Below are positions 12,689 to 19,131 of a stretch of DNA of 64,000 nt, piece after piece. Location of the stretch: assembly GCF_033153115.1 (NCBI RefSeq), contig NW_026889751.1:20956001-21020000 (forward strand), read 5' to 3'. The notes below the pieces were generated by a model. The model did not search any database. It was not told the origin of the DNA and saw only the letters and a program-made list of their open reading frames with translations. Positions within the stretch are counted from its first letter, which is position 1; the number at the start of each line of letters is the position of its first letter. The stretch is from Saccostrea echinata. Taxonomy: Eukaryota. Made by a program: the position numbers and the translations under genes.

Positions 12689-13639
12689 CTAAAATGTAAT
12701 CAACTTAGGTCTGAGATAATGCTTATATGCATCTGACACCCATCTTCCCTTTCTTTGAATTTCTTGTTCAGATATGCCCGACAAATACATGTGAGTAGCA
12801 GCTCCTATTCTAAAAGAGTGCGTTTTGAAAGTTTTTGTTTCAATACCTAAAAATCTCAATGCTTTGTGTAATACACTTGAAAACTGGTATGCCGATAATG
12901 GTGTACCATTGATATGACAAAATAGAGGGCCATCCACCAGAGATCTGAATTGCAAGAAAGTTTCTAATAAATTAAAACACACTGTTGACTCTACTGATTT
13001 GCTGATAGTAATGACTAAACCTTTTCCACTCTGATCTGTTTTAGAAAAACGCAACTTTAATTTGATATTTTCATTACTTAACTGTAAATCTGAAAGGTGA
13101 AGTACATTTCTTCGACTCTTATTTGATGCTACTGCCATTTCACTTATTCTAAGAAGACCAAAAAATGCAGTTGCAAATGTAGACCCAAATAAGAAGTGCT
13201 CATATTTTGAATGTGTAACCATAGGTAAAACATCCAAAATTTTTAGTAAAAGCTGATATGTTACAGGACTTCTGATGTCCTTTGTAGGCTTAGATCTTCT
13301 TAAACCTGTTAACATTTTTTGCACAATGAAAGATTTGACTGGATTGTCCAATCCGTGCACTTGCAAACTGTGACTCAGGGCTGATAAATATACATTAGCT
13401 GTAGAATGAGAAAGATTTTTTGATGCTAGAAAAGCCACAAAATTGATTACATGATCTACTGGAGGTGGCCAAGATAGAGGCAAATTAAATTGTAATCTGA
13501 AGTCATTAAATACAACCATGGCTTTGTCATATGCAATTTTTGTGTTGTTGGAGAGGCTAGCTTCTATTAAATGATTGACATGCCCTTCAAAAGGTTCCAA
13601 AATTGAATAGGTACTTGATAAGGATGGCAATCTGCCCAT
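12689..13639 (-). CDS. Tyrosine recombinase (phage-integrase family) of the retrotransposon
   Basis: Catalytic residues LLRISE, KTDQ, HSFRIGAAT, GRW.S.AY..Y. First ATG at 13639; overlaps the RT ORF end. Confidence 0.93.
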   Translation of the reverse strand: MGRLPSLSSTYSILEPFEGHVNHLIEASLSNNTKIAYDKAMVVFNDFRLQFNLPLSWPPPVDHVINFVAFLASKNLSHSTANVYLSALSHSLQVHGLDNPVKSFIVQKMLTGLRRSKPTKDIRSPVTYQLLLKILDVLPMVTHSKYEHFLFGSTFATAFFGLLRISEMAVASNKSRRNVLHLSDLQLSNENIKLKLRFSKTDQSGKGLVITISKSVESTVCFNLLETFLQFRSLVDGPLFCHINGTPLSAYQFSSVLHKALRFLGIETKTFKTHSFRIGAATHMYLSGISEQEIQRKGRWVSDAYKHYLRPKLITF

Positions 13640-15222
13640 GGTGCTAACTGCCTGAATCTGTTCCACTGCAATCGAGAAATTGAATCTGCTATCTCATTTA
13701 TACAACCTCTTACATGAACTGCTTTAAACGGAATATTAAACTTCAAAGAAAGCAATACTAATTCTCTCATCAAAATCATTACCCTTGTATTCTTAGATGT
13801 TTTCCGATTCAAGATTTCAACCAAAGCTATATTGTCAGCATGCAATATTAATTTCTTATTTTGTAATTTGTCTGACCACAAGTAAAATCCTAAAACTATA
13901 GGAACAAACTCTAAAAAAGTGATGTCTTTTCTTATATCAACATTCCACTCCTGTGGCCAACAGAGATAAGACCAGGAAGTACCAAAAACCACACCACAAC
14001 CCACTGAACCTGAGCTATCTGAATAAAATTGTACATTTTTGTCAGATTCCCATTCCAATTCTGGAAATTTTGTTGTTCCATTAAATTCATCAAGAAATGT
14101 TAACCACATTTGGAGGTCACTATGTATTTCTTTGGAAAGTCGTACAAAGTGATGTGGCTTAGAAACACCAGACATTAAACCATATAAGCGGCATGTAAAT
14201 GCTCTACCTGCTGGCAAGGCCTTTGTAATAAAAGCTAATGAGCCAGCTAAAGACTGAAGCTGCCTTAATGTAATCTTAGATTTCCCTTGAATTTCAAGTA
14301 TTTCTTTTTGTAAAGATTCTACTTTATCCTTTGGAATGAAAATTGACTGATTAACTGAGTCTATACCTAAACCTAAGAACACTATATATGTTGTTGGACC
14401 TTCAGTTTTTTCCTCTGAAAGAGGAACACCTAATCTTTTACAGATATTTTGAAAAGAATCCATCATATATTTACAATTGTTTGTTCCATGAGCTCCAGCA
14501 AATAAAAAATCATCTAAGTAATGAACAATATTTTTCAAGTTGGTGTTATACTCTACCACCCATTGTAAAAAACTGGAAAATTTTTCAAACAAAGCACACG
14601 ATATGGCACAACCCATAGGTAAACATTTGTCTACATAATATTTATCAAGAAACTTAAAACCAAGCAGACTAAAATCTTCGGGTCTAATTGGTAACAACCT
14701 AAATGCATTTGAAATATCCATTTTCCTTAATTGTGCATTTGTCCCCAGTTTTTGTACCATGCTAACAGCTTGATCAAAAGATGAATAATTAACTGAACAA
14801 ATTTCAGGATTAATGAATTCGTTAATACTCTTTCCATGTGGAGCAGATAAATTGGTGATTAACCTCCAACCACCCTGTTTTTTAGGTAAAACTCCTATTG
14901 GGCTGCAATGAAAATTTTGAAATGGGGGGGCATCAAATGGACCCATTATGCGACCTAGGTCAATTTCTTTGTTCAGTTTAGCTAACAATTCATCTTTATG
15001 CTCTAATGCTGAAACCATATTTTTACAAGATACTGGATCCCGCGGACCCTCATAGTTCAATGAGAAACCAAATGTAAACCCATGTAAAAGTTGATTTGCC
15101 TCAGTTTTTTCTGGATAATCTTGTAACAAAATGTTTAAAGTGGTTACATTGATCGGTGTAAAACCTAGATCCCAAAGGCATGGATCTTTATTGCCGAAAT
15201 GGCCTTGAAAATCTTGATTGGG
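13567..15222 (-). CDS. Reverse transcriptase + RNase H (pol) of the retrotransposon
   Basis: WRLITNLS, KMDISNAFR, LPMG, YLDD, FLG; RNase H SDSSG, ITFLE, ADN, N.IADSISR. The frame is open from 15222; first ATG is at 15018. Confidence 0.93.
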   Translation of the reverse strand, partial: PNQDFQGHFGNKDPCLWDLGFTPINVTTLNILLQDYPEKTEANQLLHGFTFGFSLNYEGPRDPVSCKNMVSALEHKDELLAKLNKEIDLGRIMGPFDAPPFQNFHCSPIGVLPKKQGGWRLITNLSAPHGKSINEFINPEICSVNYSSFDQAVSMVQKLGTNAQLRKMDISNAFRLLPIRPEDFSLLGFKFLDKYYVDKCLPMGCAISCALFEKFSSFLQWVVEYNTNLKNIVHYLDDFLFAGAHGTNNCKYMMDSFQNICKRLGVPLSEEKTEGPTTYIVFLGLGIDSVNQSIFIPKDKVESLQKEILEIQGKSKITLRQLQSLAGSLAFITKALPAGRAFTCRLYGLMSGVSKPHHFVRLSKEIHSDLQMWLTFLDEFNGTTKFPELEWESDKNVQFYSDSSGSVGCGVVFGTSWSYLCWPQEWNVDIRKDITFLEFVPIVLGFYLWSDKLQNKKLILHADNIALVEILNRKTSKNTRVMILMRELVLLSLKFNIPFKAVHVRGCINEIADSISRLQWNRFRQLAPWADCHPYQVPIQFWNLLKGMSII

Positions 15223-16255
15223 TCACATTGGGATTGATGTTTTGACGACCGACATTGTGAGTAGCCCCTTTTGATGTACTATGGCTGGTTTGATTACTGT
15301 AACAGTTGATGGAGGGATGGTTTTTGCCGCACTTAAGACAAGAGTGTGAAAATCTACAATCTTTTTTAAGACATGAACCCTTCAAGTTGAAATCATAACA
15401 ACGCTTGTGCTGGTGCAAATTAGAAGTAGGCTTGCGTTCAGCGACTGCTGCCTGACCCATGTAAATCAACCATAATTCTGCATCAATGTTTTCCCAACTG
15501 ATCATACTATTTTTTGAGCGCCTAAGTCTAAACTGAATGTCATAATCCCTCCACCCTAGTGTAGTAGACCGAGAAGCCCCTAGCCTTATTGAACTGATAT
15601 ACTTTATTATGCCCTGAATGTGCTGTGGAAACTTTTTTAAGTAGATGGCAGCATAAATCAAAAAGGAATCAGTCCATTCCGAAATGTTTGCAATTTTTCT
15701 ATCCTTAGATTTATTTTTTATTTTAATTTCTCCATCTTCAAACACAAGCAGTTGCTGAATTTCAGCAGCTGGATCTAAATGCAATAACCTAGCAAGATCT
15801 ATATACTCATTATTCCAAATTTTTTCCTGTGTTGTCAATGGTATATTAGCCCCAAGATCTGATGTAATACTGACTAGGGGATTAACATGCATACCTGGCT
15901 GATACACAACATTTTTTGTTGCTGTAGTCATAGAGGTGTCTTGAAGCAGAGGCTGCACATCTGGAATATTTTGAGATGCGGCTACACTAAAGGTCTGTTG
16001 CAGCTGAGGCTGGTCACCTGTGATGTTCACTGGCAGTGTGGCATTCACGGGTCTGACCTCGGATGTGTCTTGTAGGCCACAGGTAGGAGCATAAATCACT
16101 TGGCTACCACTTCCCGCATGCTGTATTTGTGAGGACTCTTGTGTTGGTTGCACCGGGCGCGCCGAGGGGCCGGAAGCACGTGCAGGGCGTCTGGCATAAG
16201 GCGATTTTGTCTTGGATCTCCTTGTAGATCCCACTCTCAACAATCCAGTGCTCAT
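15188..16255 (-). CDS. Gag-like ORF1 of the retrotransposon (355 aa from ATG 16255)
   Basis: KIWNNEYIDL and W..YD..FR motifs typical of DIRS/Ngaro gag; C-terminal zinc fingers CYDFN..GSC....CRFSHSCLKCGKNHPSINC. Confidence 0.85.
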   Translation of the reverse strand: MSTGLLRVGSTRRSKTKSPYARRPARASGPSARPVQPTQESSQIQHAGSGSQVIYAPTCGLQDTSEVRPVNATLPVNITGDQPQLQQTFSVAASQNIPDVQPLLQDTSMTTATKNVVYQPGMHVNPLVSITSDLGANIPLTTQEKIWNNEYIDLARLLHLDPAAEIQQLLVFEDGEIKIKNKSKDRKIANISEWTDSFLIYAAIYLKKFPQHIQGIIKYISSIRLGASRSTTLGWRDYDIQFRLRRSKNSMISWENIDAELWLIYMGQAAVAERKPTSNLHQHKRCYDFNLKGSCLKKDCRFSHSCLKCGKNHPSINCYSNQTSHSTSKGATHNVGRQNINPNVTQSRFSRPFRQ

Positions 16256-16518: not shown

Positions 16519-16731
16519 GATTTCGTCTGCTCTGAACAAGATGGGGAGTTGAAAAGACCTAGCGCATGCTCATTAATACTGATGTATTATTAACCATAGA
16601 ATCGTCATGATAGGACCATATAATTCCGGAAAACGGGTTGCTCTTTGTAAGCAATACGTAATTTCAAAATAGAAAGCAATAAGCGTCATTCTCAATAACT
16701 GTATTTATCTTTTAGGGATAAATCTGATTAT
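16519..16731 (-). repeat. Split direct repeat A1 (213 bp)
   Basis: Identical to 11244-11456. Confidence 0.95.
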
Positions 16732-18641
16732 CTTCCTTTGCAATGCTAATATACTTTCCTTTGGCCTGTCTTTTCCTTATTATATAATCATTTAGTATTA
16801 ATTTTGTCTATATTGGGTTCATGATTAAAAATAAATATTCTGTTCTATACCAATCCAAACTTATACAATGTATTAAATAATCAAATAATAAACCAGAACC
16901 TCAAAGGACAATCAATGGGGATCGAAAACTGACTTGTCAATAAGAATTCTACAATGTCATGTCTGTATCCATTCGGCAAAATTTCCTGAAACTCGGATTT
17001 TTTTCTGGAACCCATCATTATACAGTCAAATGTGCTTTATAATATATATTTTTTGACTGTGCCTTTAAATTACATGCTCAAGTTTTGAAAATTCAATCTT
17101 CATATTGACTGTTGCTGCGTTCTATCCCCCTGTAGGGCGTGGTTTCAACATTCAGAGTGTGTTGTTTAAATCTTTTTTCAGAAACCTATATGCATAAATA
17201 GAATTTGGCACTTACAGACTTCCGTTGAATTTTAATGGGTTCATACTTAACTATGCCACATATTGAATGTCAGGTCATGCATTTTTTTTCTCCTAATGAA
17301 AGTAATTCTATCCCGACTCTTTACAGTGGCTTCTTAGTTTAGAATTTGATAAAGACTCTTCTATCAGTGTTTATACGGATTGTATGCAAGCAAATCGCAA
17401 AATATGTCTGTGTTTTAACTTGAAGAACGCGGAAAAAACGGTCGCCATTTGCCGCAGAAAAAATACATTAGCCGAGTTTAAGTAGGGCGGCGTAGCATTG
17501 AAGCCTGAAAGCATGTGCTTCCACATTGTTTGGTGGGGAAAATTGAATTCATGAAAAATTGAAATGCTTTGAAATAAAACTTTAAAACAAACTTTGAAGA
17601 AAAAACTGATTTGTAATAAAGGATGTATTCACTATTTGAAAAGAATTGTCCTATAAGAGAGAACAATTTCCCGGAAAAAGTCACTTTTAAAAATCAATGT
17701 TCATTAGTTGTTAACTAACGTATATATATCTAAATTTTTCAAATTTGTATTTTGAACCTGAAATTTATTATTTACATCTTAAAAGTAAATTAGAATATTA
17801 GTATTTATTGATTTAGTTTAGAATCAAAGTAGTATATGTTAGATTGCATCAAACTTATTTTCCCATTATTTTATCAAAAGAATAAAATCTACTTATTGGA
17901 GAATCAAGAAGAGAACTCAAAGTAAAGAAACAGATATCAGAAAAAAGATCTGAGGAATAACCAAAGATGCATGTTTTTATACCCCTGCAACAAAGTTTGG
18001 GGGGTGGTGGTGGTAAATTGGAATCACTTTACAACATACAATACAAAACATACACAACATTATCAATTATACAACATTCAACGTGCTTAATCTTACTTTA
18101 TATGATTATTTATACAGACATAAATATAAACAAAATGTCATTCTTTGTCCGCTAGCGGGTTTTGTATTTATTTATTTATTTATTTTACAACAGCTGCAAC
18201 ATTAATTCCCATACCAATAACGAAAGAAAACATTTATTGTTTAAATAAATGACGGAATAGGTGTTTACCAAAGAATGAAAATTTTATTCTTAAGTCAAAA
18301 GATCAACCTTAACGCATATATCGTTATTGTAGAAGATTTAAAAAAAACAAGGTGATTTCATATATAAAGAAAATGGACGAACCTCTCCCTTTTTCTCCTT
18401 CTGATATCATCACTATAGGTCCTTGACGACATGATATTGACAGTATAATAAAGGGTTCAATAGTTACGGTTCAGATCAGATAGATTCAGACAACCATGCC
18501 AAAGCCAGATGTTTCCTTCTATTAGGAGAGACAGAAATTTGGATGAATTTGTAAATTATACTTCATGTAAATGAGTTTAATTTGATTTGTCGATAATCAT
18601 TTGTTTAAAAAAAAACTGAATGTTGAAACCACGCCCTCCAG

Positions 18642-18859
18642 GCTCCGGGATCATGAAACATCTTAAGCTTAAGTCAAAATATTCATGTCGTATTAAAATT
18701 TTGATTAAGTCAAGCAGACAAAAATTAAACTATTTGTCAATATTGCTTCACAAAAGTGTTGTTATCTCCAAATTTAGAGATTCATTCAACAATTAAAAAA
18801 CATTTAACAGGTGATTAAAAATTTGACTTAAGTCTAAGTCTGTTTCATGATCCTGGGAC
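18642..18859. mobile_element. PIF/Harbinger-like MITE with CAG target-site duplication
   Basis: TIRs gctccgggatcatgaaaca / tgtttcatgatcctgggac, flanked by CAG; the paralogous empty site 'ccctccagggggat' is at 3111-3124. Confidence 0.8.
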
Positions 18860-19131
18860 CAGGGGGATATATCGCAGCAACAGTCAACATGATATGCACA
18901 CGGTTCACCGTTATATTTGAATAAAACATTCAGTATAATATATAGAACATCATACCTTTAAAAATGTTTTCTGTAGGCCTATGTATACATTTATATGGAT
19001 AAAAGTTCCAATGTTTTACTGAGTGATCCCCAAAAAATCAATGTTAGACCGGAGAGTGAGATATTCGACTTGTCGACCAGATATTGGACCACTTGCGTTA
19101 CACTAGTACTGTGGGTGGGACCAGCTATATA

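Follow-up and report, generated by a model that had tools for sequence, protein, structure and literature searches.

A candidate UUU_CGN-type +1 frameshift site between gag and pol of Ngaro-type retrotransposons

The element and its gag/pol junction

An intact 6.0-kb Ngaro-type retrotransposon lies on the minus strand, at 16731-10727, of the 64-kb stretch of Saccostrea echinata DNA that we analysed as a whole and call the window. Its parts follow one another in the order A1, gag, pol, tyrosine recombinase (YR), SGNH hydrolase, B1, A2, spacer and B2 (Table 1). An ORF related by tblastn to the gag-like ORF1 sits upstream of pol in other families as well, while the pol ORF gave an RVT_1 match (E 1e-16) and its relatives gave RNase H-like ones.

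Table 1. Features of the retrotransposon, with positions counted along the window
Feature	Position	Strand	Remarks
Split direct repeat A1	16519..16731	-	213 nt, at the element's 5' end; 100% identical to A2
gag-like ORF1	15188..16255	-	355 aa from first ATG; no Pfam family
Splice donor in gag, CAG/GTATGC	15889..15894	-	after 120 codons and one base
Cys/His (zinc-finger-like) motif near gag end	15302..15400	-	from translation; pattern match in family representatives
ATG TGA in pol frame	15223..15228	-	TGA bounds the pol ORF on its 5' side
Predicted +1 shift site CCA TTT CGG (E, P, A codons)	15194..15202	-	predicted junction peptide ...RPF/GNKDP...
pol ORF (RT and RNase H-like region)	13567..15222	-	551 codons, +1 to gag
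Predicted recombinase splice acceptor	13666..13680	-	AG 13667-13666, in phase with gag donor
Tyrosine recombinase ORF	12689..13693	-	-1 to pol, 127-nt overlap; Phage_integrase E 5e-9
SGNH/GDSL hydrolase ORF	11938..12570	-	Lipase_GDSL E 0.001, below Pfam cut-off; acceptor AG 12532-12531
Repeat B1	11452..11751	-	300 nt; 100% identical to B2
Repeat A2	11244..11456	-	213 nt; 5-nt overlap with B1
Repeat B2	10727..11026	-	300 nt, 3' end of the element; 217-nt spacer from A2

The element carries split direct repeats in the arrangement A1-[ORFs]-B1 A2 B2, as the excerpts of PMC8547959 define the Ngaro type. It also has gag, RT/RH and tyrosine recombinase in this order on one strand, no methyltransferase (MT), and after YR the SGNH hydrolase ORF that the excerpts of PMC9210276 list as optional; a methyltransferase domain found no match in any of the pol proteins scanned (7/7). 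Since direct repeats, the lack of a methyltransferase and a hydrolase ORF fit the descriptions excerpted from PMC8547959, PMC9210276 and PMC7192593, the element appears to be of the Ngaro type, an assignment made against published descriptions. The preliminary description had called the N-terminus of pol DIRS-like and the element a YR retrotransposon; a YR retrotransposon it is, but not one of the DIRS1-like type, because its repeats are direct rather than inverted terminal ones with an ICR, and no MT is present.

Several side observations concern the ends and the surroundings of the element. The 217-nt spacer between A2 and B2 (11243-11027) is unique sequence; in four other families (L053, L083, L089, L154) the corresponding spacers measure about 120-430 nt, while published schemes draw B1, A2 and B2 adjacent. 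The pentamer ATAAT recurs at the left end (16731-16727), at the B1/A2 junction (11456-11452) and at the right end (10731-10727), and is likely the recombination core. At 1 kb from the element, an AMP-binding (acyl-CoA synthetase-like) ORF runs uninterrupted for 584 codons on the minus strand (7930-9684), with no introns apparent in its frame. Inverted repeat pairs (27-33 nt, 81-96%) are nested around 17100-17155 and 18616-18892, and possibly mark a non-autonomous DNA transposon.

At its 3' end gag reads CCA TTT CGG CAA TAA, with TTT CGG at 15199-15194 and the stop codon at 15190-15188. Directly behind ATG TGA, at 15222, pol opens in the +1 frame and overlaps gag by 35 nt; its first Met is residue 69 (15018), 48 residues past a conserved TPIN motif. 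The coordinates given in the preliminary description all proved correct, as did its account of an ATG-less pol in the +1 frame that overlaps gag by 35 nt. As in influenza PA-X, a zero-frame UUU_C is found within the overlap and the downstream ORF stands in +1; the UCC of the influenza form is absent from the E site, which holds CCA.

Searching the genome at the DNA level yielded 22 matches to the element, and 21 of them were aligned at the gag/pol junction. Both ATG TGA and TTT CGG are kept in all of the near-identical copies (16/16; 96.7-100% identity), and because these 16 close copies all keep it, the gag/pol layout is not a mutation of the window copy. Five older copies are less uniform: the TTT-CG motif is kept in two and lost in three, and ATG TGA is not kept in this form in three. 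Two decayed copies (L018 and L019, 83% identity) have ATG-AGA at the site, that is, an open Met in the pol frame, and neither contains an ORF of 150 codons. Sister copies with an open, ATG-initiated pol had been named beforehand as evidence against a frameshift; the open Met does exist in these two, an intact ORF does not. Among the other families (83 examined), ATG TGA was not a conserved feature.

TTT-CGN in the gag/pol overlaps of other families

Protein searches of the genome, in each of which 150 of about 1300 candidates were scored, returned 138 loci (L035-L172). The 136 that could be anchored were grouped into 56 families, separated at less than 80% nucleotide identity; the S. echinata genome thus holds at least 56 Ngaro-like families, many of them with intact multi-copy members. 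A metagenome scan contributed 80 loci, 55 of which had enough upstream DNA and formed 46 families, whereas nothing was found when metagenome contigs were scanned with a single protein or viral contigs with an alignment. Each family was represented by one member, kept if its gag covered the Cys/His motif and overlapped pol in +1. This left 27 families in the first set, 24 in a held-out set from the same genome, fetched after the first test, and 32 in the metagenome set (83 in total), with 2, 3 and 14 dropped (19/102). The dropped rows were mostly broken copies, and a few had a pol that was in the -1 frame or shared the frame of gag (L185, L201, L209, L081). The 83 representatives are therefore selected for the +1 layout, and single contigs cannot separate mutation from a true alternative layout. 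A case of this kind is the metagenome contig L185, with a gag of 427 codons and a pol of 568 codons in the -1 frame, representing either a mutation or a true -1 type. In two further loci gag and pol share a frame (L118, L143); these, lacking 13 and 7 bases in comparison with their +1 siblings, were read as mutated copies.

An in-frame TTT-CGN occurs in the gag/pol overlap of 55 of the 83 distinct families: 17/27 in the first set, 23/24 in the held-out set and 15/32 among the metagenome contigs. Under a codon-shuffle null over the 83 families the mean was 7.95 and the maximum 18, so that none of 5000 shuffles reached 55; neither did any of 5000 reach the observed count within a single set (shuffle means 2.3, 2.2 and 3.5). 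A lone 5-mer in a single overlap of 12 codons might be due to chance, but its recurrence over the families is not. TTTCG was the top in-frame 5-mer in all three sets, and its sites fell by frame as 18/0/0, 28/0/1 and 20/0/1, i.e., 66 in frame versus 2 in the other two frames. Under an earlier, stricter inclusion the first set had shown the motif in 15/24 families (later 17/27), with p 0.001 against a best-of-any-5-mer null. Conservation of TTT-CGN at the junction, put forward in the preliminary description as a check on the frameshift, is thus borne out both here and in the 16 close copies, and its persistence across distant families supports a reading of the site as a UUU_CGN +1 frameshift.

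The codons chosen bear on the level at which the motif is selected. Within the overlaps TTT-CG was observed 66 times versus 7.9 expected, TTC-CG 6 versus 6.2, TTT-AG 16 versus 13.7 and TTT-CA 29 versus 22.3; TTT-CA, TTT-CC and TTT-CT were not raised, which leaves CGN as the preferred A-site codon. Because TTT-CG is enriched and the synonymous TTC-CG is not, the signal resides in the RNA and not in the protein. In gag upstream of the overlap, all four Phe-Arg codon pairs were raised jointly, as would be expected of a protein motif. In a fixed stretch of 130 codons, 66 sites were counted over 5518 codons whose +1 frame is open to pol versus 19 over 5047 where it is closed (p 2e-6), the latter being mostly a gag QFRL motif. 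The stretch of open +1 frame upstream of the site averages 23.5 codons, close to the 20.9 expected by chance; downstream, where openness is built into the counting stretch, the median is 64 codons.

The motif is found on both main RT branches (31/36 and 23/45 rows in a quick version of the tree, built without named reference elements) and in 15 of the 28 families belonging to the clade of the window element (null 3.1), there within a variable linker. In 34 of the 55 families it comes ahead of the zinc finger, in the others behind it, and so it is not bound to one protein position. The A-site codon is most commonly CGT (36/66 sites); the E-site codon ends in a pyrimidine at 53/66 sites, being most often CCC (18/66) and TCC at 5/66. 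The gag/pol overlaps measure 35-470 nt across the families.

The signal also has its limits. TTT-CG is missing from 28 of the 83 families; a different Phe-Arg pair is present in 17 of them (null 9.7, reached in 4/3000) and no such pair in 11, while TTT-AGG appears in six of the motif-less families (null 1.7). For the metagenome families alone, Phe-Arg pairs showed a weak codon bias (20/38 versus 53/148, p 0.065). Presence of the motif is clustered on the tree, with 14 changes versus 22.9 after shuffling, and the p-values overstate independence because the families are related and many pre-finger sites are homologous. In-frame TTTCG also turned up within the last 50 pol codons of 9/56 families, and a search for a 3' stimulatory structure at 55 sites found none (mean z 0.03; one below -2). 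Beside these families stands a clade of three from the S. echinata genome (L090, L092, L136) that is devoid of TTT-CG and has gag stopping directly after the zinc finger; the gag end of L092, TTC TAA C, may represent a stop-stimulated shift.

Routes to Pol, the recombinase and the hydrolase

Taken together, the layout of the junction and the codon statistics make it very probable, in our judgement, that Gag-Pol is produced by a PA-X-like +1 frameshift at TTT-CGG. A small share of ribosomes would slip by +1 at this point of the gag/pol overlap. By analogy with influenza PA-X, tRNA-Phe in the P site would re-pair from UUU to UUC while the CGN codon waits in the A site, after which GGC AAT AAA would be read on into pol to give a Gag-Pol of 895 aa. 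If the PA-X yield of about 1% applies, many Gag molecules would be accompanied by few of Gag-Pol. In the window family the shift would come after the zinc-finger motif; in the 34 families with the site ahead of the finger, Gag-Pol would be devoid of it.

Three other routes to Pol have to be weighed against a frameshift. Splicing does occur in this element (see below), and rare splice forms can be hidden by contigs; a spliced RNA joining the gag donor at 15895 to an acceptor at the 5' end of pol might thus be considered. The window has a TAG/G at 15167-15164 whose phase matches that of the donor, and 19/83 families show a YAG at that place. These 19 YAGs come from the pol codons Leu-Gly (Leu ending in A in 12/27, against 42% pol-wide), though, and their mean pyrimidine share is only 0.43, while any other acceptor offset at the pol start is shared by at most 9/83 families, against 33/36 for the hydrolase and 50/56 for the recombinase. 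Neither a joint nor a contig break was seen at the pol start in five runs, guessed to be RNA; contigs span the gag/pol junction unbroken in 5/5 of these runs. Given that contigs drop rare splice forms, neither depth nor a missing pol or YR joint is evidence of absence. Nevertheless, splicing into pol leaves TTT-CG unexplained, and we give it a slim chance. Separate translation of Pol, by reinitiation after the gag stop or by a leaky or internal start at an AUG or near-cognate codon, with TTT-CG kept for some other RNA role, seems to us slightly less probable still. It draws on the pol-frame ATGs that precede the conserved pol start in 61/83 families and on the open Met of L018 and L019, which lies where an ATG had been marked in advance. 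Such ATGs are, however, rarer in that stretch (2.2%) than in gag's +1 frame further upstream (3.8%), share one offset in at most 5/83 families and are altogether missing in 22/83. Moreover, the first pol ATG of the window is behind 36 upstream ATGs, a start there would remove 48 conserved residues, and another RNA role would demand no single reading frame.

The least likely of the routes, in our opinion, is that TTT-CG is a by-product of protein constraint, either a Gag Phe-Arg motif or double coding, and that the ATG-less pol reflects mutation or TGA readthrough. Pro-Phe-Arg does precede the zinc finger in one large clade, and Phe-Arg is conserved elsewhere too, as a gag and a pol motif. But a constraint on Gag would favour neither TTT over TTC nor CGN over AGR; a constraint on the pol frame presupposes ribosomes in that frame, which in several families opens only a few codons upstream. 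The synonymous codon test therefore largely refutes the by-product explanation. As for point mutation or readthrough at ATG TGA, the alternative offered in the preliminary description, it is not supported, in view of the 16 close copies that share ATG TGA together with the motif and of the scattered or missing ATGs ahead of the conserved pol start. The +1 frameshift at TTT-CGG thus remains our preferred explanation for Pol.

For the recombinase and hydrolase ORFs, splicing from the gag donor appears to be the route, in the case of the recombinase on prediction only. A GT..AG joint 15895-12530 is present in contigs of runs X1 and X2, which come from two studies and are guessed to be RNA, and it yields an in-frame Gag(1-120)-SGNH product of 317 aa. 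Among the 36 families having the hydrolase ORF, 33 keep a phase-1 acceptor that is at most 18 nt away from one position. As regards the recombinase, NAG occupies a homologous pol codon in 50/56 families, CAG being used in 46 versus CAA in 5 (CAG accounts for 41% of Gln pol-wide), and from this acceptor a Gag-YR fusion of 445 aa is predicted. This phase-1 acceptor lies concealed within the Ser-Arg-x-Gln codons of pol, just ahead of the recombinase. The predicted joint was not seen in contigs of five runs, a kind of material that loses rare forms. Strong donors were distributed by phase as 29/5/4, a count that is uncalibrated because stop codons limit phase 2. Frameshifting in Ngaro elements is itself already conjectured: Poulter and Butler (2015), as quoted in the excerpt of PMC13003380, guessed at a programmed frameshift for the YR ORF. 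The conserved recombinase acceptor argues against this guess, and a -1 slippery heptamer was found in only 2/42 families at the YR overlap.

It is tempting to combine these observations in one scheme, which we regard as rather more plausible than not, in which a single Ngaro RNA with a single start codon gives rise to Gag, to Gag-Pol via the UUU_CGN shift, and to the spliced products Gag-recombinase and Gag-SGNH. Should this four-protein scheme be true, Ngaro elements would be the first transposons to use an influenza-type shift, as well as the largest family encoded in genomes to do so, and the -1 frameshift guessed for YR would be an error.

Meaning and comparison with known systems

In the literature that we found, the expression of the overlapping, often ATG-less ORFs of tyrosine-recombinase retrotransposons is left open. 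Our analysis points to a specific site, direction and junction peptide, which one reporter would suffice to test, and with it the UUU_CGN shift, known from RNA viruses, would reach a widespread class of genomic elements. The 66 natural sites, with variants such as CCC E-site codons and UUU_AGG, may be of use for the study of a poorly understood slip. For annotators, a +1 offset from gag to pol is no sign that a Ngaro element has decayed.

Overlaps or frame offsets are mentioned without a mechanism in the excerpts of PMC3266345, PMC3783388 and PMC6681497, whereas in LTR elements the extra ORFs come from spliced messages (PMC5408684). No named shift site for a DIRS-order element was found in the literature, where older reviews may propose a frameshift for pol. 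Literature matches for UUU_CGN in transposons were confined, among the titles listed, to one amalgavirus and one ASXL paper, and we found a UUU_CGN-type shift described only for RNA viruses (e.g., influenza) and for one proposed vertebrate gene. What we propose is thus a known kind of recoding in an element class for which we found no described site. Closest in build are Ngaro elements with an SGNH hydrolase, such as DIRS-53_XT of Xenopus, which likewise have split direct repeats, overlapping gag, RT/RH, YR and SGNH ORFs and no methyltransferase, and whose expression mechanism is not given in the excerpt of PMC9210276.

The role of UUU_CGN as the +1 motif of influenza PA-X and of amalgaviruses, cited in the preliminary description, agrees with the excerpts of PMC3498833 (Firth et al. 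2012) and PMC5052127 (Nibert et al. 2016). For PA-X, UCC_UUU_CGU as the site and the +1 direction were fixed by mass spectrometry, with an efficiency of about 0.7-1.3% (PMC3498833), and no 3' stimulatory structure is known according to the excerpts of PMC8310308 and PMC5009743. The Ngaro sites resemble PA-X in having UUU_C in the P site, CGN in the A site, a +1 direction and no 3' structure that we could find; unlike PA-X with its UCC, they have CCC as the commonest E-site codon, and their product, predicted from sequence, is the Gag-Pol of a genomic retrotransposon.

In the +1 overlaps of amalgaviruses UUU_CGN is prevalent, with a consensus that does not require UCC, and an AGG variant has been proposed for two of these viruses (excerpts of PMC5052127). 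With them the Ngaro elements share a structural ORF1, a polymerase ORF in +1, the motif in the overlap and a minority AGN variant, our UUU-AGG families recalling the AGG form; amalgaviruses differ in being dsRNA viruses of plants and fungi, with overlaps of 287-968 nt there versus 35-470 nt here. Finally, yeast Ty1 also makes a retrotransposon Gag-Pol through a P-site slip of +1 that precedes an Arg codon, at CUU_AGG_C (excerpts of PMC5052127 and PMC3498833). Ty1 is an LTR element of yeast that slips on a Leu codon, with up to about 40% efficiency owing to a rare tRNA, in which it differs from the Ngaro elements; some Ngaro families, nonetheless, carry UUU_AGG_C, a form intermediate to the Ty1 site.
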